From Chiloscyllium plagiosum (taxonomy: Eukaryota), in contig NC_057758.1 of assembly GCF_004010195.1 (NCBI RefSeq), positions 2,392,205-2,456,204 on the forward strand: 64,000 nucleotides of DNA. The letters are read 5' to 3'. Every line of letters starts with the position of its first letter. The stretch's first letter is position 1. Positions 17,695-64,000 of this stretch are shown here, piece after piece. The notes beneath the pieces are model-generated. The model had not been told where the DNA came from. It worked only from the letters and a program-made list of their open reading frames with translations, and did not search any database. The position numbers and the translations under genes were made by a program.

Positions 17695-19320
17695 GGAGTG
17701 ACAATGTTTATCATTGTGTGTTATTGTATTTGCCGGTGTGAGTCTGTAATTGATTGCATTGCCATTTTATGTGAATCCGAATATGTGTTATTGTACACAT
17801 GTTTGCGTGTGCTTGTATTTTGTATATTTGCGCATCTGCTTATATGTATTATTGTATGTGTGATTGTGAGAGTGTGTCTGTATGAGTGTTTCTGTTTGCA
17901 TGAAATTGACATTGTAAGCGTTCAGTTGTGAGTGTGTGTCGTGTGTGTATGCCTGTCATTGTGAATGTTTCTGATTGTATGTGATACTGTGTTTGTGATT
18001 TTGAGCATCTCATTTCCTGTACTTGTGACTACTTGTTCCTGTGTGTGATTGTGCATGTGAAAGTGTGCATATCATTGTGAGGGCCTCAGTGTGAATGTTT
18101 TTGAACGTTTGCAGTCGTATGTGCTATTTTGTATGCAATTGCGTGCGTGCGGTATCAGTGCATCATTGTATGTTCATCTGAATAGGCGTGATTGTGTATA
18201 ACTGAGTGCATGTTGGCTGTGTGCCATTTCATGTTGTGTCTGAATATGTGCTATAGTGTGCAATTATGTGAGTGTGTCATCGTCATTTTATGTATTTGTG
18301 TCATTGTGAATGCGTCATTGTGTGATCTTGAGTGTATGTTTATGTCGTGCATGTTTGTCATTGCATGTGGGTCTGTAAATATGTATCATTGTGAGTGTTT
18401 ACAATTGAGACTAGTAACAATGTGCCATTGTAAGGTTGTAATGGTCTTCTAGCCTTTCTGTGTGTACGGGTGTGTCATTGTGAGTCTTTCTGATTGTGTG
18501 CAATTAATTCTGTGTGCGCTATGTGTGTCATTGTGTGTGCCTGATTGTATGCTGTGCGTGATTGTGTATGTAATATTGTGTGTGTTAGTATGAAAGTATC
18601 AGTTTATGTGTTGCGTCATCGTGAGTGTCATTTTGACTGTATTTGATTGTGTATTGTGCATGTACCTATATCTCATTATGAGTGCATGTGATTGTAATTA
18701 TACCTGGGAATGTGTCATTTTGTCTAAATTTGTGTGCCTTGACTGCATGTCACTGTCTGAGTGCCAGTGCGTGTGCCTGTTTGTGTGTGTTCAGTGAGTG
18801 AGGTGTCAGTGGGCGGCACGGTGGCACAGTGGTTAGCACTGCTGCCTCACAGCGCCTGAGACCCGGGTTCAATTCCCGCCTCAGGCGACTGACTGTGTGG
18901 AGTTTGCACATTCTCCCCGTGTCTGCGTGGGTTTCCTCCGGGTGCTCCGGTTTCCTCCCACAGTTCAAAAGATGTGCAGGGTCAGGTGAATTGGCCATGC
19001 TAAATTGCCCGTAGTGTTAGGTAAGGGGTAAATGTAGGGGTATGGGTGGGTTTCGCTTCGGCGGGTCGGTGTGGACTTGTTGGGCTGAAGGGCCTGTTTC
19101 TAAACTGTAATGTAATCTAATCTAATCTAATCTAATCTAATCAGTGTGATTGTCTCACACTGCTTGTGCCATTGTAAGATGGTCATTGTGTGTATGTTTA
19201 TGCATCTGACAGATTGTCACTAAATGTCTGTCTAAATGTACGTCAAAGCGTGTTTGTGCCGTTGTGACTGTACGTTTATGAGTGTAAGTGTTTACGTGCG
19301 TGCTATTGTGTCATTATGTC
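17695..19320. repeat. Degenerate TG-rich low-complexity satellite (gtgtgtcattgtga-like units), interrupted by a SINE
   Basis: Recurrent TCATTGTG and GATTGTG words in a GT-rich tract. Confidence 0.8.
18811..19140 (+). mobile_element. V-SINE (HE1-like), full length and young
   Basis: GGGCGGCACGGTGGCACAGTGGTTAG A-box, GGTTCAATTCC B-box, intact V-domain and (TAATC)n tail. Possible TSD TCAGTG. Confidence 0.92.
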
Positions 19321-19381
19321 AGGATGACACCAATGGTACCTCACAAGGGTATGTTAGAGACTGAAGTATTCACATTATTTT

Positions 19382-19683
19382 TTAGATTAGATTAGATTAC
19401 TTACAGTGTGGAAACAGGCCCTTCGGCCCAACAAGTCCACACCGACCCGCCGAAGCGCAACCCACCCATACCCCTACCTTTACCCCTTTAACCTAACATG
19501 GCCAATTCACCTGACCCGCACATCTTTGGACTGTGGGAGGAAACCGGAGCACCCGGAGGAAACCCACGCAGACACGAGGAGAACGTGCAAACTCCACAGT
19601 CAGTCGCCTGAGTCGGGAATTGAACCCGGGTCTCTGGCGCTGTGAGGCAGCAGTGCTAACCACTGTGCCACCGTGCCGCCCAC
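19382..19683 (-). mobile_element. V-SINE (HE1-like)
   Basis: Reverse complement of the same family, with a (GATTA)n tail at 19382-19399. Confidence 0.92.
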
Positions 19684-20078
19684 TTTATTGACCTAATTTG
19701 TGCAAAATGGCAAAGAAAGTCATGTATCCAAATTTGCTAATGACACAAGGGGAGGAGGCATTATCGACAATACAGGTGACAGCATAAAATTACAAATGTA
19801 TATTTGGTAGAATAAGTCGATGAGCAAATCTGTGGCTGATTACGTTCAAAATAAACAATTGTAAGTTTAACTATTTTGGACAGAGAATGGGCAGATCATA
19901 GCTCTTTCAAAATAGCTTGAAGTTAAACACAAATTATCTAAAAAAAGAATTGAGGGTTCAGGTGCATGAATCTGTAAAACGTCACAAACAATTGCCACAA
20001 AAGCATCGCATCAGGAGACACCTTGCAACGAGATGGGACTGAAATGTTCGGATTATGAAGGGTGAGCAGTGTGCGTTT

Positions 20079-20110
20079 GTCTCCACAGAGCCTAATTGTG
20101 TCCCTGGAGG
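20079..20110 (+). promoter_or_regulatory. Candidate proximal promoter block of GPCR gene 1 (homeodomain TAATTG plus O/E-like TCCCTGGAGG)
   Basis: 23/30 ungapped identity with 63016-63045 upstream of the paralogue. TAATTG is at 20093-20098 and TCCCTGGAGG at 20101-20110. Confidence 0.45.
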
Positions 20111-20263
20111 GGTTCCCTCTTCTACAAATATGTGGACTCTTTCCATAACGTAAATTATCCTGCAGTTTCAACGGGAGATAAATTCGTCACAGGCTGAGAT
20201 CCCTGGCTCCATGCAGAGAGGGAGAGAGAGAATCTGGTAACATCAGATTGGAACGTGACCACA

Positions 20264-20435
20264 ATGGACCAGAATTTGAGAACTTTAGATTGGAATGTTA
20301 CTAAAGTGGAGAAGAGTTTATCGTCTTCCATTTATTATTTTTCTACAACTCACTACCTTGTATTACGAATACGACACCTACTTCGGATTATCCAACACTT
20401 TTACTATCCGTTCCTGGCTATCATTGGTCTTCCCG
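20264..20435 (+). CDS. GPR139-like: GPR139/GPR142-like class A GPCR, gene 1, coding exon 1 (N-terminus and first half of TM1)
   Basis: ATG in ACAATGG context. Encodes MDQNLRTLDWNVTK...IIQHFYYPFLAIIGLP, with a phase-1 donor CCCG|GTAATG at 20435/20436 that splices in frame to 26380, giving GLP-A-NIVTIVAL. Confidence 0.85.
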
Positions 20436-20739
20436 GTAATGTTCTCTTTCAATTATTTAACACTTGAAAGGATGTTGAACTGTGGTAATAGCGCGGTGCT
20501 GCTCAGGAGGGTGGTCCAGAAATTCATGGGAAGTGGAAAAACCCGAAAGTTCTGCCTAGACTCAGCAGGTCAGTGTGATGATATGAGTCCAAACGAATTA
20601 GTCTTCAGAACACTTTGTTAAAGTTCGGCCCTCCTTTTTTTAACTCGCAGCTGCATGAACAGCACATATAATGTGTGCTGATAATTTGTTGTTTTTTAAA
20701 ATTCCCTTTCAGAATCTTGAATATTTAATGCACAATCTA

Positions 20740-21560
20740 TGTTACATTCAAAACTTCAGGAAAAAATGCGTTCAGTTCTTGTCGCCACATAACAAGATTT
20801 ATGTGGAGGTTTGGAGAAGGTATGGAAGAGTTTTACCAGGATGTTGCCTGGATGAGAGGCTAAGAGGGTATGAGAGGCTCAAAAAATCTAGGCTTGTTTT
20901 TCTCTGGGGTGTCAGTAGCTGAGGGTAGACTTGATAGAATTATGAGGTGCAGAGACAGGGTGGCTGTCAGAATCGTTTTCTGAGATTTATAATGCATAAT
21001 AATTTGGGCGGCACGGTGGTACAGTGGTTAGCACTGCTGCCTCACAGCGCCAGAGACCCGGGTTCAATTCCCGCCTCAGGCGACTGACTGTGTGGAGTTT
21101 GCACGTTCTCCCCGTGTCTGCGTGGGTTTCCTCCGGGTGCTCCGGTTTCCTCCCACAGTCCAACGATGTGCAGGGTCAGGTGAATTGGCCATACTAAATT
21201 GCCCGTAGTGTTAGGTAAGGGGTAAATTTATGGGTGGGGTGCGCGTCGGTGTGGACTTGTTGGGCCGAAGGGCCTGTTTCCACACTGTAATCTAATCTAA
21301 AATCTATAACGGAGAGTGTGTATTTAACAAGAGGGTGGAAATTTTAAAAAAGAATGAATAGCATTTTCTAACTGGTAGTTCGCTGCTGGGTCGTGCAAGA
21401 GGCTGTTCAGGGGCTTTTGCATAAGCACATGAATCTGCACAAAATGGAGGAATATAGTCCAAGGACATGCAGGACAGACTTGTTTAATTTGCCGTCATGT
21501 TTGGCACAAGATCGTGGCCCAAAATGACGGTTCCAGCGGGTATTGTTATATGTTCTATGT
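20740..21560 (+). mobile_element. Degraded CR1 3' end in the GPCR intron, interrupted by a SINE
   Basis: CVQFLSPHNKIYVEVWRR motif. The 3' tail ends ...tatatgttctatgtt at about 21560. Confidence 0.65.
21006..21300 (+). mobile_element. V-SINE (HE1-like)
   Basis: Intact tRNA-like head, V-domain and (TAATC)n tail. Confidence 0.92.
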
Positions 21561-21721
21561 TATGCAACGCGGGGTCCTGTCGTTATTTCTACACAACCGT
21601 GTTTATTCGAGTCTCTCACAAATCCTCCTACCAAATGTTTTCTTTAAAATTCCTCGTGGCAAAAAATCTTGAACACGATTTCGCAGTGTTTCCATGCAGT
21701 TGCTTTCAAATCACAACCACT

Positions 21722-22433
21722 CACTGTGTGGGGAATGTCTCCTCGTTTTGCACCTGTATCTCTTCAATATATTTGAAGCCGTCAACTCCTCTTTTCCTGA
21801 CACTGTAAACATTCCTCACTATTAAGTTCCAGTAAGCAGTTTGTCTGAAGTAGCTTCTCCATTTTTTTTCTTAAATCCACGTTACTGGTATAAACTACTT
21901 GATCAAACTCTTGTTTTCGACTTGCTTCTTGCAACTGATGACGCCCAGACAGCGAAAGTGTATTTAGCCCATAAATTAAATACCTTCCGCAACTTCGTAT
22001 TATTTTGATAACTTCGCTGACGCTGTGTCCCAAATGGGACACAATGTGGCGATTTACCAAGTTTTATCGTGTCTTGACACTGTGTGAGGAATCTCTCTTC
22101 GTTCTGTGCATGGATCTCTTCAAATCATTTGAAACTGTCAACTCCGCTTTTCCTGACACTGTAAACATTCCTCACTATTAAGTTCCAGTAAGCAGTTTGT
22201 CTGAAGTAGCTTCTCCATTTTTTTTCTTAATTCCACGTTACTGGTATAAACTACTTGATCAAACCCTAGTTTTCGACTTGCTTCTTGCAACTGATGACGC
22301 CCAGACAGCGAAAGTGTATTTAGCCCATAGATTAAATACCTTCCGCAACTTCGTATTATTTTGACAACTTCGCTGACGCTGTGTCCCAAATGGGATACAA
22401 TATGGCGATTTACCAAGTTTTATCGTGTCTTGA
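21722..22433. repeat. Tandem duplication, 2 x 356 bp
   Basis: 21722-22077 repeats at 22078-22433. Twin minus-strand ORFs 21782-22060 and 22138-22416 differ at only a few residues. Confidence 0.92.
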
Positions 22434-23703
22434 TCGGCTGTAGTGACGCTTTTTCGTCAAGTGTTAAGACAAGAACATGGTGCATTTGCAGTTGTTCTTA
22501 AATACCCTGGCATGTGCAAAAGTGTTGGTGCATACACTGGTATCTCCATCTGTGTGTTCTTTAGTCTTCTCTTTATTTGTTTGTTGGATGTGGGTGTCGC
22601 TTGCTGGTCCCCAGTTGTCCTTGGTAGGTTGTGTTGAAATGTCTTCTTGATAATCTGCAATACCATGTTTCACAATGCCTTTTGAGAGGGAATTCAGGAT
22701 TTTCGCTCAGCCAAACTGAAGGAATATCGATATATTTCCAAGTCCGGATGGTGACTGGCTCGGAGGGAAACTCATAGGTTGTGCTTTCCATGCATCTACA
22801 TTCCTTATCCTTCCAATTGCTACAGGCTGTGGGTTTGGAATTTGTCACACCAGGATCTCTGCTGATATCTTTTTCAGTGCACTCTTTAGATAGTGCATAC
22901 TGCTGTTATGGAGCTTTGGTGGTGGTGGGAATGGATATTTGTTGATGTCATGCCAATCAAGCAGGTTGCTTTGTCCTGGATTATGTCACATTTCTTGACT
23001 GTTGTTGGAACAGCACACATGCAGGCAATTGGATCGTTTCACTTTCATTCCTTGCTTTCTCTAATGCATTCGAAAGATATGTCTCACTGAACACGCCTAT
23101 GAGTCAGTTTGTATTTATGAAGTGTTGGATTTTGATTTAACATCAATTGCTAATTGTATTGCTTATATCTCCGTGTCAATATCCAATGAGCTTTAATGGT
23201 GAAATTACAACTCTGTTCAACTCTCTATTAGCTTTCTAGCATCTGGAAACAAATATCCTGATTATTTTGAAGATTTTGTAAAGGTTTCCCAAGTGAGCTC
23301 TTCTTCTTTCTCAACACGCATCCAGAGACAATGTGATATTCACAATTTTGGTTGTCAGATGACATACCTGAGACGTCACTGGCTGTTTTTCCGACATGGA
23401 GCATTTTACCTTACTACTAACTCCGCATGATCAAAACATGTAGGAAGAGAAGTTTGCTGTCCAACCACTCAACTCTGCTTCACCATTCATCAAGATCACA
23501 GCTGATCTGACATTCTTCATGCCCACGTCCCTGCCTTTACAGCATAAAGCTTGATTCCGTTACTGATCAAGAATTTATTTATCTCAGCTTTCATTATACA
23601 GAGGGACTTTCCCCACGTCTGTCTGCAGCAAGGATTTCTAAAGACTCACAACATTGAGAAGTAATCCGTCCTCACATCCCTCTTATTGTGCTACTTAATT
23701 TGT

Positions 23704-23997
23704 GGGCGGCACGGTGGCACCGTGGTTAGCACTGCTGCCTCACAGCGCCAGAGACCCGGGTTCAATTCCCACATTCTCCCTGTGTCTGCGTGGGTTTCCT
23801 CCGGGTGCTCCGGTTTCCTCCCACACTCCAAAAATGTGCAGATTAGGTGAATTGGCCACGCTAAATTGCCTGTAGTATTAGGTGCAGGGGTAAATGTGGG
23901 GGATGGGGTCTGGGTGGGTGTGCTTCGGCGGGTCGGTGTGGACTTGTTGGGCCGAAGGGCCTGTTTCCACACTGTAAAGTAATCTAATCTAATCTAA
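23704..23997 (+). mobile_element. V-SINE (HE1-like) with an internal deletion after the B-box
   Basis: GGTTCAATTCCC is joined directly to ACATTCTCCC of the V-domain. (TAATC)n tail. Confidence 0.9.
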
Positions 23998-25559
23998 TTC
24001 AGAGCCTACACCCTCTGGCCCTAGTCTCTCTCTAGAAAGGAAACCTCCATTTAGCATTTAACTTGTAAGGTAAATGTTAAGAATCCTGCCTGTTTCAATG
24101 AGATTACCTCTTGTTCTTCTAATCTTCAATGAGTACCAAACTGTTTGCCGTTTGCTTATTTAACAACTTATCCTTGCCAGGAGTTATCACAATGAATCTT
24201 GAAATTCCCTCGAAATGGAAGTCTCCACCAAATGGATGTTGCATTTCGCACAGGTTCAGCTTCCAAAAACATACCAGAGACGACATTCGGTCCACACACG
24301 CACAGTCCTGAAAAAAATCGAATCTCCAAATTCATTCCCCATCCTTGAGCGATGAACTCCACTATTGTAATGCACACCTGAAAGGCTACAATCTCTAATC
24401 AGTAACTTGAGAGACATTAGAAGCAGAAACATATATAATAGGAGCCGGAGTAGGCCATTCCTCCCCTCGATCCTGGTGTAATATTTAATTCAATGAAGAC
24501 TGATGATGTAACTCAATCACTGGTCCTGCTTTCTCACCATAACTTTAAGTTCTGAGTTCTACCTATGGAAAACTTTCAATGTTTTCATATCAATATCGTT
24601 TTCTTGTGAAGACTATCATAATCTCACTGAAATAACTTCAAGAGGCCGATTTCTCTTTCCGAAGCCACCCTTTGGTTACACGTGGAAAATCATTGACAAT
24701 TGTCTATCTCCCTCAGAGACAGCTCCCAGAACAACGTACCTTTCATGTTGACAATCTGCAATAAAACAGATCATGCAGGCAAAGTTCGGCAGGCTCCCTG
24801 ACAACATCTCTTATCAGGAAAAATATATTCTATGAGGTCCACCCGATTGAAATCACCACACTGACTACTGTCTGAGTGAAGCCATTTCTCTATATCTCAG
24901 TCGGGAATGCAATCTAAATCCTTAGTCTCAATTCGTGCTTCTGGACTAGCCGGTTATTTGGAACTCCGTACTGTAATTATCTTGTTGATTTCAGTTAAAG
25001 TTTTAAGTATTTGCATTCTATATCCCCTACCTCTCATTTTCCTAAACTCCAAAGAAATTGGTTAAGCTGTTCCTTTCATGTCCAGTCTGCTGCATATGTT
25101 CCCATTTAAATCATCTGTTTGCAGTGAACGGAATGAGGAATTGGCTGAAATGGATCAGGAGAGACAAGCATTCCTGTCACTGGTTTGAAATAATTGAACC
25201 CCCTACTGCCTGCATAATGGTAGAGAAGTTCAGAGGCCATCCAACACTGAAACCAGAACAAAGTGTCTTTCATGCTGACAATCTGAAACAAAACAGATCA
25301 TGCAGGCAAAGTTCGGCAGGTCTTGCAGTATCTGAAAAACAGGGACCACAGAGTCACGGAGACATGTTGTTTACTGCACGACAAAACCGATAATGCACGG
25401 TGGATTTTTCCCTTTTTTGACAAAACAGAAAATGGTTTTGTGGAGATTGTGGAACGTTAATCAGCAACTGAATCAAAAAGTTCACTTTGTACCTCTTTCA
25501 TTTATCTCTCTCGCCTTCCAGCACATTCTTATTTATTTCCCTTCAACTGCATTTCTTAT

Positions 25560-26379: not shown

Positions 26380-27281
26380 CTAATATTGTGACAATCGTAG
26401 CCCTGTCAAAAGGAAGATGCGGTCTCTCCAAATGTGTCACACGCTACCTTACGGCCATGTCCTCTGCAGATTTACTGATCATCATCATTGATCTAATATT
26501 GAGGCACATACCCATTGTGTATAGAGATGTCTTTTTTTACATTCTGTATAATCTCCGTATCTGTAATATACATTCAGCATTTATATATGCTGTCACAGAC
26601 TGTTCTGTCTGGTTCACTGTCACTTTCACCTTTGACAGATTTGTCGCTATTTGTTGCCAGAAGCTGAAAAGTAAATATTGCATTGAAAATGTGGCGTATA
26701 TTGTTCTTGGAACTGTGACTGTGCTCAGCTGTTCAAAAAATATTTTCTGGTATTTCAGATTAGCAAACAATTATTGGTTCAGGAATTTTCCTTGGCCTTG
26801 CTTTATGCATTACAATGTGGTACATTCCAAAGTTTGGGCATCAATTGAATTCGCTCACTACATTCTAAATCCTGGCATGCCATTTCTTCTGATTCTGCTG
26901 TTCAATGCCTTAACCATCAGATACATCATCGTGACCAGCAAAGCTCGCAAGAGACTCTGGACTTCCAGCAATACAGAAAGCTCAAGAGACACAGAGATGG
27001 AGAATCGAAGGAAATCGATCATTCTCTTGTTCGTTATCTCCGGGAATTTTATTTTGTTATGGAGCGTGTTTATGGTGTATTCTATATGGAACGCGATGTA
27101 TCTCATTGGGTATGAATCTGTATATTTATATGATTATCTACTCGAATTGGGTTTCATGCTCCAGCTTTTGAGTTGCTGTACAAACACTTTTATTTATGCT
27201 GTGACCCAGACTAAATTCAGAGAGCAATTGAAGAATGTTTTGAAACAGCCTTTTACTTCAGTGGCTAAATTAATAAAATGA
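26380..27281 (+). CDS. GPR139-like: GPR139/GPR142-like class A GPCR, gene 1, coding exon 2 (rest of TM1 to TM7 and C-terminus)
   Basis: Acceptor ttttctttccgtcttcgcAG|CT and an open frame to TGA at 27279-27281. Motifs: TM2 YLTAMSSADLL, TM3 SVWFTVTFTFDRFVAIC, TM5 PFLLILLFNALTIRYI, TM6 KSIILLFVISGNFILLW, TM7 SCCTNTFIY and helix 8 KFREQL. The spliced CDS is 1074 nt, or 357 aa. Confidence 0.95.
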
Positions 27282-33701: not shown

Positions 33702-34001
33702 ATCTTCGAGGAGAAAGTGAGGTCTGCAGACGCTGGAGATCAAAGTTGAAACTTTATTGCTGGAACAGCACAGCAGGTCAGGCAGCATCTAGGGAACAGA
33801 AGATTCGACGTTTCGGGCACATGCCCTTCTTCAGGAATGAGGGCATGTGCCCGAAACGTGTCCCTCCTCCCTATCTTTTATCTTCTCCTGCTGAACACTC
33901 TCTGCTCATTCCTGAAGAAGGGCATGTGCCCGAAACGTCGAATCTTCTGTTCCCTAGATGCTGCCTGACCTGCTGTGCTGTTCCAGCAATAAAGTTTCAA
34001 C
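33702..34001. mobile_element. Short PLE-derived hairpin element with TSD-like flanks
   Basis: Perfect 97-bp inverted repeat 33745-33841 / 33905-34001. A 13-bp direct repeat ACAGCAGGTAATA lies at 33689-33701 and 34000-34012. Confidence 0.85.
33908..33943 (+). ncRNA. Minimal type I hammerhead ribozyme motif (antisense twin at 33803-33838)
   Basis: ATTC-CTGAAGA-A-GGGC(ATGT)GCCC-GAAA-CG-TC-GAAT, with predicted cleavage after C33939. Confidence 0.7.
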
Positions 34002-37345: not shown

Positions 37346-39299
37346 AAAGGAACAATCATTTTGATTTGTCTGTGTGTGAGCGATTCTCTCGATTCGAACC
37401 GACGTCAGTAATTATGTGCTTGCTGGAGTTCTGTCATTGTCAGTTTATAATCAGTGTGGGACTCCATTTTACTGTTAATCTTAGCAGATGCGATCATATA
37501 ATGATAGTACTTTCTTAACTTTCTTCTTCCTGGTGCGCAAGTCTAAGTATACCTGAATTGCACGTGGCCTGCTTTTGTAAAGAATCAACATGAACATGCG
37601 GATATTTAAACAGATCATCGAGATTTCTTAATAATTAAGATTGGAATATAACAAGAAATAAACAGTATATCAAGGTTTTATGAGACTTAATCAATTCCTT
37701 ATCATTTTGCTATTTTCATCAGGTTCAATGCCCATCTGCCCACCTCTGATTCCCACGCTACATCAAAGGCAATTCTTATTAACGAGTGTATGTGTATATG
37801 TATATATGTGTATATGATTAAATATATTGTTGATATATGTAGATATAATTTCTGCATCAACTCATATATTTTCATGATTGAATGGTGACAGCCACACGGA
37901 AACCAGAATGCAGCACTCCAACACATTCTCCACGTTGAAACCGGATGAGAGCTTAAAGGTGTCTATTTGGACACAGTATAGAAATTACAAACAAAAATTC
38001 AGGGTCATAACTGCTCAAAATTCCCCTATTCATATTACTTCCCTGGAATTATGATGATGCAGAATATGGAGGCCGAGTCAGTACATATCACCATTTTCAC
38101 TGCTTTTTTTTTAAACTCACAAGTCTGTCGAATGTTCCAGCAGTGTCATTGACTGCTCTACATAAATTAATAAAACCACGCTCATATAATGAGACTTCTG
38201 GAGAAATCAGTTTTGATTACATCTGCACCATCGCATTAAACTCATGCTTTTTTTTAAACTTAATTCAATTATAAATCAGGTACCAGAACTGCAAGGATTA
38301 GTCCAAGGCAGATGTGCTCAGGTGACAGGAGATAATCTTGAGCACGAGGGAACGATCCGATCGTCTGCGCAGTACTTAACACATAGGACTTTCCTCAAAA
38401 CTGCTTATTCAATTGTGTTCTCAGAGTTTAATACAGCACAAGACACCAGCGTTCGGTTCAGGCCTAGGGTGGCGTGTGTGTGGAGTTACATGTGTCAGCG
38501 TGCTTTTCCACCGAGTGCTCTTGCTTCCTCCAACAATCCAAACATATGCAGGTTAGGTGGCATAGACATGAGAAATTCCTCCGTTGTGTCCAGGGATGTG
38601 CAGACTGTGTGGACTGGCCTTGGGAAATGTGAATACATGGTTACAGGTGGGTGGTAATCCCATTTGAATTTATGAGGATAGAAAGCTCTTGATGGCACTG
38701 TCTATGGACACTCAATGCTGTCTCGATGCGCTGAATGGTCTCTGAAGTGATTCGGTGATTCTGTGGAAATACAAATGTTCTGATCTTCATTTGTTGAAAT
38801 CTTCACACATCCACAGTTTTATCTGTTAAAAAAAAACTAAGATCAGCAGCAATTAGGTCCCTTCTGGTATTGATTTCGGTGTGATTTATACTATCAAAAG
38901 ATCCCAGGATCGACATTCCAACTAAAGCCCGGCATTCACAGTGAGCCTGAGAACGTTCAAACGAATGTGCATGAGATTCAGTCCGGCTACCTTATCTCTC
39001 TTACATCAAATCTAGTGGCAATTGTGATATGATCCCAGGGCACGTGTAGGATCTCCAGTTGAACCTGGTGATCATGGCAATGGCAGATGTACTGACGATT
39101 ATAACTGAGGTCATACTGACGCTAATGGAATCAAGAGTTAATATTTCCCAATACTTCTGTTGAAACTCCCCACTGTGTGTAAGGTTTGCTACCTCTTGCC
39201 TCATGTAGTAATGGACTGATCAGTCTGGTTCATCGTCTTACAAGAGAAAGAGTCATACAAAGTGAGAGACAAAGAACCAGGTAGAGAGCAGACACTGAT

Positions 39300-41054: not shown

Positions 41055-41660
41055 ATTTTTTGCCACAGCAGGAGGACCAGTGAGAGCGAGGACCGGGGGT
41101 TGCTGGGAAGATCAATTATTCGTGTAAAGCTTTACCTCGTGGGAGCAGCTGACTCCATTTTTTTGCAGCAGCAGCTGGAGCAGCGGCACGAGGACCAGCG
41201 GGCTGCCAGGGAGCTAAATTAATCATTTAAAAGCTTATCTCGTGGTAGCATTTGCCTCCTATGTTTTGCAGGCCGCAGTGGAAGCAACGAAGGTGAGGAC
41301 TGGGGTCAGCCAGGAAGGCAAACAAAGTCATTTAAAAGCTCATCTCGTTAGAGAAGTAGGGTCCATTTTTTTTGCTGCAGCAGCAACGGCTGACCAGCGA
41401 AAGCAAAGAAAGCGAGCTGCCTGGAAGGTACATTAATACTTTAAAAGAAAACCTCTTGGGAACAGCAGCTTTGATTTTTCACAGCAGTGGGAGCAGTGAG
41501 AACGAGGACTGAAGGTTGCCCGGAAATCAAGTTAATCAGTTAAAAGTTTATCTCCTGGGAGTAGCGACTTCCACTTTCTGGCAGCAGCAGTGGGAGCCGC
41601 GACAGCGAGGACCAGGGGCTTTCCAGAAAGGTCACGTATTCGCATAAAGGTTTACCTCGT
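41055..41660 (+). repeat. Six diverged tandem units of about 104 bp, probably a CR1 5' UTR array
   Basis: Each unit reads (T)n-GCAGCAG..GGAGC..GAGGAC..GCC.GGAAG..TAAAAG.TTA.CTC.TG. The array abuts CR1 RT sequence at about 41660. Confidence 0.7.
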
Positions 41661-60620: not shown

Positions 60621-63015
60621 CCTGGTGTCCAAGTGGTGTTTAAGGCAAAGGGATGTCTCACTTGTAGAAGCTTTCATTTTTGAAAAAGCCTGACAGATGC
60701 TCCTGTTAATGGAGGACGCGAAGGCTCATGAAATTGCAATGCAGTAAGCTGTCTAGGCTTTTGTTGAAATGTAAAAAGTGAAATGAAGACAATGAGCTGA
60801 ATCACCTCTTTTGGAACCTGAATGGAAAATACTCTAAATTTCTTGCTATCACGTCACATTTTCCATTTGAGTGTATTTACGAAAGAGTTTAACTGAACAG
60901 CCATAATAATATTATAGGGATGAGCCGGCTGCAAAATCTGTGTGGGCTCCTCGTGCTCTGAGTTTCTTTGCTTTATGTCCGAGGCTAAAGGAATCAAAGA
61001 GAGAAAGCAGGAGCAGGAACTGATTTATCTGACCATGTTGTGATTACATTGAATAGCAGGTCAGTTTCGAAGGTGAAATAAACAGCGACTACTCCTCTTC
61101 TATATGGAACTGGAGAAGTTGTGACAGGTAGCCACTCGTCAAGGGAGGAGAAGAGTAGATGTGACAGTAGCAGTCAAGATGAGGGGCGTCAACAGGATCG
61201 GTAGTCGTGAGGTTATTTCCAAAAGTTAGGATATGCAATCTCCTTATGACTTCGGTCACTCAGAAAACAACCAGAGATTTCCTCTGGAAGAAAAACATTT
61301 GTAGCTATGTGGGGAAACGTCAGTGTCGTGGGGAAAGGGAGAAAATCGATGCAATAAAAATGTTTTTTTTTGAGAGGCCGAATAGTCTTTCTTTAGTGCT
61401 GCATGATTCTGGAAAACTTGCATTGTCATTGGCAAAGGAGCGAGAATGTTATGGAATGTGAAATGTGGTTGGGGAGGAAATTCCAAATTGATCGACGTTC
61501 TTCTTTTAGTAAATGACCTTCAGGCCATTAACCTTCAAAATGCTGATCCTACTCTGGCATTCCAATGATGGCCAGCCTGACAGTTCTTAAATTCATGATG
61601 CCTAATGGCATTATAAATGGCTGTCCCGCTTGTTTGGTCGTCTGTGATTGGCAACAGGCTGCACTGCAAATCAATATCATTTCCATGGAGTTGAAAGCAT
61701 TGCTTACTCAGCTGAAAAATTCGGCTTGTTCTACTCAGATCTCCTCCATGAACAATCACACACCACTACGAATCTTCATCACTTTAATTATGCAAGCATC
61801 CAAGAAGCATAGAGATGAGGAACAGGTGAAGACCATTTGGCTGTTTAAGCGTTGTAAGAATAGTAATTATTTCTGCAGTTTTTGCGATTGTTATCCAAGT
61901 ACTGAATTCTGGAGAGACTTCCAGGTACATGGTTTTAACAATTTGGACAGTTTATTTGTGGAACAAGTAAATTTTCCTCTCAGGTTGAGGATCATAATGG
62001 AAAATAAAGACTTTTGCTTTTGTTTTAGGGGAAACAGCTGTCACCTGAGAAACACACATTTCCTGCTTGATTAGTCAGTCTTGCAGATGGCTTGGCGGTT
62101 GGTGTATATAGACCCATGGAGTCATACACCACTAAGCAGATCCTTCCGTCCAACTAGTACATGTCAAACATAATCCCACATTAAACCAGCCCCACCTGCC
62201 TAATCCTTGCCCTCCAAACCTTTGGTATTCTTTGATCCATCCAAATGTCGTTTTAGTTGTGATTGCACGCAAATCGTCCACGTGAGAAATAACCTCGGCA
62301 TTAAAAAAAGACTCTTGCCTTTTTAAAAATCTTTCTCCTCTCTTCTTAAAAAATGTGCCCACTAGTATTGAAATACCCCAACCGAGACACAAGACAACTA
62401 TCATTAATGCCAACAGTTTAGGGCTGGGAGGAAGCGATTCAGTTTTGAAGTTCCAGACCAGGACGGGTTGCTTAAATCTGGAAGTGCTTGTGTGAAATCG
62501 ATTAACTTTAAACTCCATTGTATGATGAAGAGATATAGAGGTTGCTAGATTCTGGTGGCACAGACTCCAGGATGTTCAACGGAACAGAGAGATCTTGGAA
62601 TGCTAATCCATAGATCTTTGAGGACGGACACAATCTGAGTTTGCATGTATACAGGATTCTTCCCTGTAACCCCAACATGATCTCAATGTAAGATTTTCTA
62701 TATCCACAACTGTGAATTCAAAAGTTGTACTATTCTTTCTCCAATGTTATGCTGACTGGTCTGTCGTTCAATGCTTTATGATTCTCCACTTCTACAGAAG
62801 TAAAGGCATTTACCAATGCTGAAGTCTTCTTAAACATTTGCCATCTATAAGAGCATGTTTGAAAATTTGTGACCAATGCTGCACTATTTTCACAATTCTG
62901 TTGCTCATTCGAAGTACTCTGACAGACTTGAAATATATTCAAATGTTTTCTGTTAGACTTTTGGTTAGAAAGGTGTTAATTGAACTTGTTTGTTCAAAGA
63001 CTGTGATTAATGTCA

Positions 63016-63046
63016 GTCTCTATGGATCCTAACTGTGACACTGGAA
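63016..63046 (+). promoter_or_regulatory. Candidate proximal promoter block of GPCR gene 2
   Basis: GTCTCTATGGATCCTAACTGTGACACTGGA is 23/30 identical to 20079-20108 and sits at a similar distance from the coding start. Confidence 0.4.
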
Positions 63047-63181
63047 GCTGCTCACCTTTTCACAAGAAGTCCCTGCTCTAGACGGGATTATAACACCGTG
63101 TGACTGGGAAACTGAACTCTGATGCTAATAACGACCAGCTATTCCAGACAGAAGGGATTCGGAGACAAGAATCTGAGAACA

Positions 63182-63341
63182 ATGGAACGGAATGCTTCTG
63201 CCATGGATAGGGATTTCACGTATGGTCTTCACTGGCTCTTTGCGGATCGACCTTGGATAACAGTAGCCCATCGAGTTTCATACGCACTTCAGGTTATACA
63301 GGGCGGCTATTACCCCATGCTTGCGATTTTTGGCATCCCTG
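63182..63341 (+). CDS. GPR139-like: GPR139-like GPCR, gene 2, coding exon 1 (exon 2 expected beyond the window)
   Basis: MERNASAMDRDF...LQVIQGGYYPMLAIFGIP aligns with gene 1 IIQHFYYPFLAIIGLP. It has the same phase-1 donor, CCTG|GTAAGT at 63341/63342. The start is ambiguous, with in-frame ATGs at 63122, 63182 and 63203. Confidence 0.8.
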
Positions 63342-64000
63342 GTAAGTATCCAAAAGCCATGTATAACCTATGTTACAGTTTTTCTTGTAGATATTTATGT
63401 ATCTATAGTCATCGTTATTATAAAACAGATATTTGCACTCCACTGTGAACTAAAACCGAAACACTCAAAGAGGAGCACCTCACCATATGATCTGGAGAAG
63501 GAGCATAAAAAGTGCTTTAGCCTGCTTTTCAGTAACTTCTCGCATTGGAATAAAATTACTCCTTGACACTTTAAAAATAACAAGTAGTAATTCGCTTATC
63601 TGAATCTAAGAGTGAACAGTTACTAAGTCATTAACAAGTAGAATAAATCCCTTCAACTAAATACTGTCCCCAAATAAAACAATATTGTGATGGTATGCTG
63701 TTCCACATCACCCCCGTTCATAAGTATAAAATGAACAACATTTATTCTGTTGAAATTACAGCCAGTATACAAGTCTTCCGGGATGTTCTGTGCTTTCTAC
63801 GCGTTTCTTCTGTCAGGAATACCTTCTCAATCATTTGTTGCTCAGATGGTCTTTTCTTGAAGAGAAAGATGAGGCCGTGAGAGCCAACGATTGACACTGG
63901 ACAGCTGAAGGCCGTTTACTCTGTCGGATGGCAGCTAGCTCTGAGGTCTTTTTACAACTGTCACCTTCTTTTTTACCCTTGATGACATGTCAATATTTCT

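Follow-up and report, generated by a model that had tools for sequence, protein, structure and literature searches.

The two receptor genes of the 64-kb window (the whole stretch of DNA analysed here) carry a non-random upstream block of 30 nt, which lies at a fixed distance of 185-187 nt from the start codon, is also found in a second shark lineage and is better kept than most of exon 1. The match is genuine and recurs in a horn-shark relative, so a shared gene switch of the receptor family is the probable reading. At slightly better than even odds (roughly 0.5), the sequence data point to a proximal cis-regulatory element of an elasmobranch GPR139-like receptor family, kept by purifying selection.

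The block would have been copied with each receptor gene duplication and then held by purifying selection. It would lie just upstream of the transcription start, a position outside the transcript being favoured because the ATG kept in three of the four copies would be easier to tolerate there. It could serve as a docking site for DNA-binding proteins, through which many paralogues would share one cell-type address. At CCTAAYTG, the most likely binder would be a homeodomain-class factor, with a partner on the adjacent GTGWCAC-TGG part; the second half of the block would be a good EBF site in gene 1 only. A conserved promoter element of this type would offer practical access to a very large family of receptors which is undescribed among the literature matches listed: it could be used as a short probe for first exons and intact copies, and to find out in which cell type the family is used.

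Conservation of the block in two shark lineages

The preliminary description of this DNA had reported an ungapped match of 23/30 between positions 20079-20108 (gene 1) and 63016-63045 (gene 2), both on the + strand, and direct comparison bears this out. The reported spacing also holds, the block starting 185 nt before the ATG at 20264 (MDQN) in gene 1 and 187 nt before the ATG at 63203 (MDRD) in gene 2. Both copies precede a receptor exon 1. No third copy is found on either strand of the 64-kb window, in which the next best 30-mer reaches 18-19/30 against either copy. A check for dispersed repeats gave no extra copies in the 64 kb, and the block is absent from the 20 largest repeat families listed.

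None of 300 shuffles of the two 500-nt upstream regions attains 23 matches at any offset (maximum 22), and the same holds for 1,000 shuffles when offsets are confined to 10 nt around the ATG register (maximum 21). Outside the block, the best upstream 30-mer between the two genes scores 21 and is off register. When the two coding first exons are compared with each other, their best 30-mer also reaches 23/30, the score of the block, and the end of exon 1 stays below it at 21/34. In a metagenome collection, a degenerate pattern of the block matched 0 stretches, and the pattern of the exon 1 end matched one, a chance match on the opposite strand of a bacterial-like gene. The exon 1 alignment contained no stretch conserved enough for a locus search.

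Two further copies are provided by the horn-shark protein models P0107 (MDPNCVTG) and P0123 (MDPNCDTG), which start at an ATG inside the block, as in the gene 2 copy. This internal ATG is located 60 codons before MGQNLRT, which places the start of the block 186 nt before the matching start. These copies are known from protein: third codon positions are not fixed and only codon-fixed bases were compared. On this basis, the first eight codons, once back-translated, agree with gene 2 at 17/17 positions for P0123 and 16/17 for P0107, and with gene 1 at 13/17 and 14/17, respectively. The horn-shark extension aligns with both upstream regions of the window with scores of 46-47, against 4.2 or less for 25 random window stretches. 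With 15 differences in 433 residues, P0107 and P0123 are considered as one lineage, so that the four copies come from three independent lineages (gene 1, gene 2 and horn shark). This sample is biased towards a well-kept block, since the horn-shark models surfaced through keeping the ATG in frame.

The flanking DNA had been described as hard to align. It is indeed diverged, but not unrelated: in the horn-shark alignment, the stretch between block and ATG (20109-20263, + strand, in gene 1, where it ends in one untranslated 42-nt N-terminal repeat unit) is homologous across the family. It could be argued that the whole 190-nt 5' region is homologous and that the block is its slowest-decayed or gene-converted piece, picked afterwards. 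The block-to-ATG region does align across species, and the shuffles reject chance similarity, not shared ancestry. Both the slow evolution of shark genomes and sequence exchange among clustered paralogues would favour such an island. Against gene 1, three later horn-shark segments (12/13, 11/13 and 11/12, gapped) are kept as well as the block (14/17 with P0107), which is therefore the best, not the sole, conserved part. A neutral origin is nevertheless unlikely. The block is fully kept (17/17) between gene 2 and a horn-shark paralogue, in spite of an exon 1 protein identity of 39% and of next segments that match at only 9/14 and 7/13. Moreover, the comparison of gene 1 with gene 2 picks the same 30 nt independently of the horn-shark data, and the length from block to ATG is stable within 2 nt, although the intervening alignments need several gaps.

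Contigs of the public runs X2 and X4 cover the locus in a close relative or in other individuals. Over 20080-20228, the closest X2 contig shows two differences; neither is in the block, and 20080-20109 is free of them. A second X2 contig has the same first base and differs at 16 positions, with 3 gaps, over 20080-20255. These data, which cover 40 of the 75 difference rows, fit an identical block in about 10% diverged sequence, the sharing of the 30-mer being deduced from contig ends. A bump in depth over the bin containing the block (X2 and X4) was considered as a pile-up of paralogues and rejected, as it is explained by overlapping contig ends. The highest contig depth over the gene 1 5' region falls on the N-terminal repeat. 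A peak of 12-16 contigs at 19930-19989 also exceeds the block bump and reads, weakly, like a decayed LINE piece. Over 19780-20679, two single-cell RNA runs gave 2 reads (less than 90% alike) and 0 reads, with about 2 and 6 in 100 sampled.

Decayed LINE-like pieces lie upstream of both blocks, clearly at 62565-62629 (E 2e-6) and suggestively at 19720-20000 (E 0.27); a family promoter would therefore be compact. Several near-identical copies of a tRNA-headed SINE, which we take to be HE1-like, flank gene 1 exon 1 in both orientations (18809-24000). Other repeats of the window include a 356-nt tandem duplication, 94% identical, in the gene 1 intron (21722-22433), a perfect 97-nt inverted repeat with a 63-nt spacer (33745-34001), derived from repeat ends also present at 1-226, and a GC-rich array of about five units of 103-104 nt (41066-41629).

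The receptor genes and their family

Gene 1 is split into two coding exons on the + strand. Exon 1 (20264-20435, GT donor at 20436) encodes the N-terminus and the first half of TM1, and exon 2 (26380-27281) the remaining 7TM receptor; the spliced frame of 357 codons has no internal stop. Coding exon 1 of gene 2 (63182-63341, + strand, GT donor at 63342) has in-frame ATGs at 63182 and 63203, and its exon 2 is beyond the window. Between the two genes, a degraded and frameshifted exon 2 fragment of the receptor family (38981-39237, + strand, nhmmer E 1.1e-7) represents a pseudogene relic.

Exon 2 of gene 1 specifies a rhodopsin-class 7TM domain. A protein search with this exon returned 1,992 clusters at E <= 1e-20. 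The 120 best of these all come from sharks (nine species) and bear the name GPR139, nearly all with an identity of 61-69%; a skate member of the family also exists. Judged by sequence, both window genes are members of a very large elasmobranch GPR139-like family, not of the OR family. Among bony vertebrates, the nearest relatives looked up show about 30% identity, and the nearest coelacanth protein tested is 31% identical. For a profile of 31 family members, the nearest solved structure is human GPR139 (E 9e-14, the next being 3e-8). The Pfam model 7tm_1 is present in all 31 members and Srx, weakly, in five, and none of the 31 matches the OR, V1R or taste-receptor models at E values up to 0.1. 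Neither the shark GPR139-like family nor its promoter is the subject of any paper among the literature matches listed, and the expansion is not described in the available parts of PMC8455134, PMC6504862, PMC12294341 and PMC10620051.

The pairing of the MDQN and MDRD start codons proposed earlier holds for the DNA register (19/30 on the +2 diagonal at 20230) but is not unique, as gene 2 has the earlier in-frame ATG at 63182. Indeed, the protein alignment pairs MDQN of gene 1 with GDKN at 63161 of gene 2. This ambiguity arises because the N-terminus is composed of 14-residue units in variable copy number. Each unit (42 nt) carries an N-glycosylation sequon, and 1 to about 8 copies are found among paralogues; the repeat is seen at 20222-20305 and 63161-63202, and in the proteins P0013, P0069, P0182 and P0318. 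Where a repeat copy begins with ATG, the start codon is displaced. Gene 1 has another TCCCTGG (20200-20206, + strand) inside a stretch which reads through as an ALTGIS-like peptide in the models of three shark species (P0066, P0181 and P0289). As this peptide is common to the three species, conservation extends to the approximately 45 nt that precede the first repeat unit.

Coding, RNA-level and splicing readings of the block

In gene 1, the block has ACA in place of the ATG and a stop in that frame. In gene 2, the ATG opens a frame of 19 codons (63022-63081, + strand) which is out of frame with the receptor. The block cannot therefore be coding in either window gene. A codon-compatibility scan of 360 proteins revealed no further read-through of the block, the next best scores (0.80 and below) being chance, and region searches with the horn-shark N-terminus recovered its own cluster only (1 of 6 and 1 of 76 candidates). 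Two of the four members of the horn-shark cluster start at MGQN. Since the block is noncoding in the window genes, half of the horn-shark cluster starts at MGQN and no other read-through was found, the horn-shark extension is most likely an annotation that runs to the first in-frame ATG. Coding being excluded in both of these genes, the best reading of the block is that of a conserved element with a proximal regulatory role.

A role at the RNA level would require the block to be transcribed, the upstream ATG and its short frame damping receptor translation, or the block being the relic of a longer N-terminus. The presence of the ATG in three of four copies, the short frame of gene 2, the fully open in-frame extension of the two horn-shark models and a slight tilt towards a coding history, in that four of the seven bases distinguishing the gene 1 and gene 2 copies are third codon positions when read from the ATG, are all compatible with this. 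However, gene 1 keeps the block well with no ATG, the bases upstream of the ATG are also common to both window copies, and each lineage has its own reading-frame offset from the receptor (185, 186 and 187 nt). Furthermore, the extension appears in no other cluster, both copies fold no better than their shuffles (z -0.03 and 0.49) and Rfam gives no match on the block. We consider such a role quite improbable, and a regulatory element acting as DNA remains the preferred reading.

The block might also be a 3' splice site, placed downstream of a non-coding first exon that has escaped notice. In gene 1, a pyrimidine tract followed by CAG (20075-20088, + strand) resembles a splice acceptor, matching the DICE matrix consensus at 13 of 14 positions. 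This tract is particular to gene 1: the gene 2 sequence shows 6 mismatches, and the AG is missing from three of the four copies, with ATG in gene 2 and in both horn-shark copies where gene 1 has ACAG. In addition, most of the shared bases would fall on the exon side. A splice site would thus be a most improbable explanation of the conservation.

Homeodomain and O/E motifs and comparison with known systems

The preliminary description had also pointed to adjacent homeodomain and O/E (EBF) motifs in the block. As it stated, gene 1 includes a TAATTG hexamer (20093-20098, + strand) 2 nt from TCCCTGGAG (20101-20109), and gene 2 is weaker for both motifs. The comparison made here gives gene 2 TAAC for TAAT and 5 mismatches to the 11-nt O/E consensus. 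The hexamer reads TAACTG in gene 2 and TAAYTG in horn shark, in which the position sits in an Asn codon and could be T or C; the TAAT core is intact in gene 1 and altered to TAAC in gene 2. The O/E-like site (20101-20111, + strand) has one mismatch to the consensus TCCCyngrgar (Table 1 of PMC3247239) and is intact only in gene 1. The idea of an Lhx2/EBF block stands as far as this good homeodomain and O/E pair of gene 1 is concerned, but it does not extend to the family, the CCC being intact in one of four copies. In gene 2, P0107 and P0123 the CCC core is broken by a purine under every codon choice. Over all codon choices, P0107 has 2-5 and P0123 3-6 mismatches to the 11-nt consensus; in the best case, P0107 departs from the EBF palindrome at one position and from the O/E consensus at two.

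The hexamer alone is about as frequent in the window as chance predicts (48 seen against 48.9 expected). TAATKR within 5 nt of an O/E core occurs once, in the gene 1 block, where 0.04-0.06 would be expected, and somewhere in 6 of 100 shuffles, for a pattern that was chosen after the gene 1 site had been seen. With a looser O/E pattern (at least four pyrimidines, two free bases and four purines), gene 1 fits fully (8/8) with a 2-bp gap and at 7/8 with a 1-bp gap, and the other three copies show 2-4 mismatches at a 1-bp gap. A second TAATTG is located 39 nt before the gene 2 block (62977-62982, + strand), with no O/E core within 5 nt.

The core common to the four copies is CCTAAYTGTGWCMCTGG. It includes a GTGWCAC palindrome, which is exact in gene 2 (63035-63041, + strand), has one mismatch in gene 1 and can be accommodated by both horn-shark copies, whose central bases are not the same (V/D at residue 6). 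EBF seems plausible for gene 1 only, as the bases common to the copies do not spell an EBF site, and a literature search for EBF half-site tolerance found nothing. Four copies are too few to name a binding factor. The core also bears what we take to be resemblances to TALE, Six4, Myb or AP-1. A recombination-signal reading of the reverse strand was dropped, since no shared nonamer is apparent by eye. A weak TATA-like TACAAAT lies 15 nt past the block (20123-20129, + strand; one mismatch to TATAWAW), a speculative assignment given that 12 such one-mismatch sites occur in the 600 nt upstream and that TACAAAT is absent at the aligned place in gene 2.

It is possible, though we hold it only as a minority view, that the block is an Lhx2/EBF module as in vertebrate olfactory receptor genes and that the family is expressed in olfactory neurons. 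The ancestral form would then have been close to TAATTG-TG-TCACTGGAGA, strong in gene 1 and decayed in gene 2. The solitary TAATKR and O/E pair of gene 1 and the near fit of the best-case P0107 point in this direction. The O/E halves of the mouse composite allow pyrimidine and purine runs (available text of PMC5608512), a tolerance that gene 1 satisfies fully at the 2-bp gap and with one mismatch at the 1-bp gap. Mouse OR starts are preceded, within 200 bp, by an enrichment of O/E and homeodomain sites (PMC3247239, in the part available), and O/E-like sites are described in 39 of 39 V1R promoters studied in the mouse (PMC3247230, likewise in part). The size of the family and its variable N-termini also look like those of a sensor repertoire.

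Several observations argue against this module. The CCC core is broken in three copies and gene 2 is poor in both motifs; the gap is 2 bp instead of the canonical 1 bp; the scored pattern was picked after gene 1 had been seen; and none of the 31 family members matches the OR, V1R or taste models. According to the available parts of the sources, the mouse composite has a 1-bp gap (PMC11643329; probe table of PMC5608512), loses strength when 2 bases are inserted, and is more typical of enhancers than of promoters (PMC5608512). In the accessible text of PMC10116579, OR expression was not found in the catshark nose, whose neurons are microvillous and dominated by V2R receptors. An Lhx2/EBF code would still be compatible with such a nose, since O/E-like sites occur in all of the mouse V1R promoters mentioned above. 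In a catshark brain-plus-nose library, the top 50 genes include no GPCR in the portion of PMC11979771 available, which says little for a multigene family.

If the binding factors are Lhx2 and EBF, the block would bear directly on how sharks smell with so few known receptors; if they are not, it would be the ordinary shared promoter of a duplicated family. An extended form of the first case appears doubtful. In it, sharks and rays, thought to be chemoreceptor-poor, would have assembled their own set of GPR139-like amino-acid or peptide sensors, hundreds in number, and placed it under the Lhx2/EBF promoter code known from the ORs of bony vertebrates; the block would then direct the family into olfactory or related placodal sensory neurons, perhaps one gene per cell. 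The preferred reading remains a proximal regulatory element of the family. Shared promoter blocks in duplicated receptor families are already known; the shark block itself was not found in our literature searches.

The Greek Island Lhx2/Ebf composite resembles gene 1 in having a homeodomain hexamer followed by an O/E-like 10-mer, in the same order and orientation. Its Sfaktiria probe (PMC5608512) also includes TAATTG and an imperfect O/E site. However, the gap is 1 bp in the Greek Islands and 2 bp in gene 1, the composite is enriched in enhancers between genes and not in promoters, and the candidate O/E core of the shark block is broken in three of four copies. In the available part of PMC3247239, mouse OR proximal promoters are like gene 1, with its O/E site at 10/11 and adjoining TAATTG at a distance compatible with a proximal promoter. 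The enrichment described there concerns 314 promoters with mapped starts, in contrast to the four shark copies, and the shark genes, unlike those of mouse ORs, are GPR139-like with a split coding region.

GPR139 and GPR142, class A orphans activated by L-Trp and L-Phe, provide the nearest structure to the family and the source of its database names (PMC7318219, in the part available). In the same text, L-Trp and L-Phe activate mammalian GPR139, whose expression is mainly in brain. The relationship is distant: mammals have a single gene, whereas sharks have hundreds of copies each. The V1R genes of the mouse are again another receptor family, and their motif CNTCTGG is absent from the block, which has ACTGG or CCTGG there. 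Nevertheless, like the shark genes, mouse V1R subfamilies are clustered GPCR paralogues that share promoter sequence inherited through duplication (cited in the introduction to PMC3247230).
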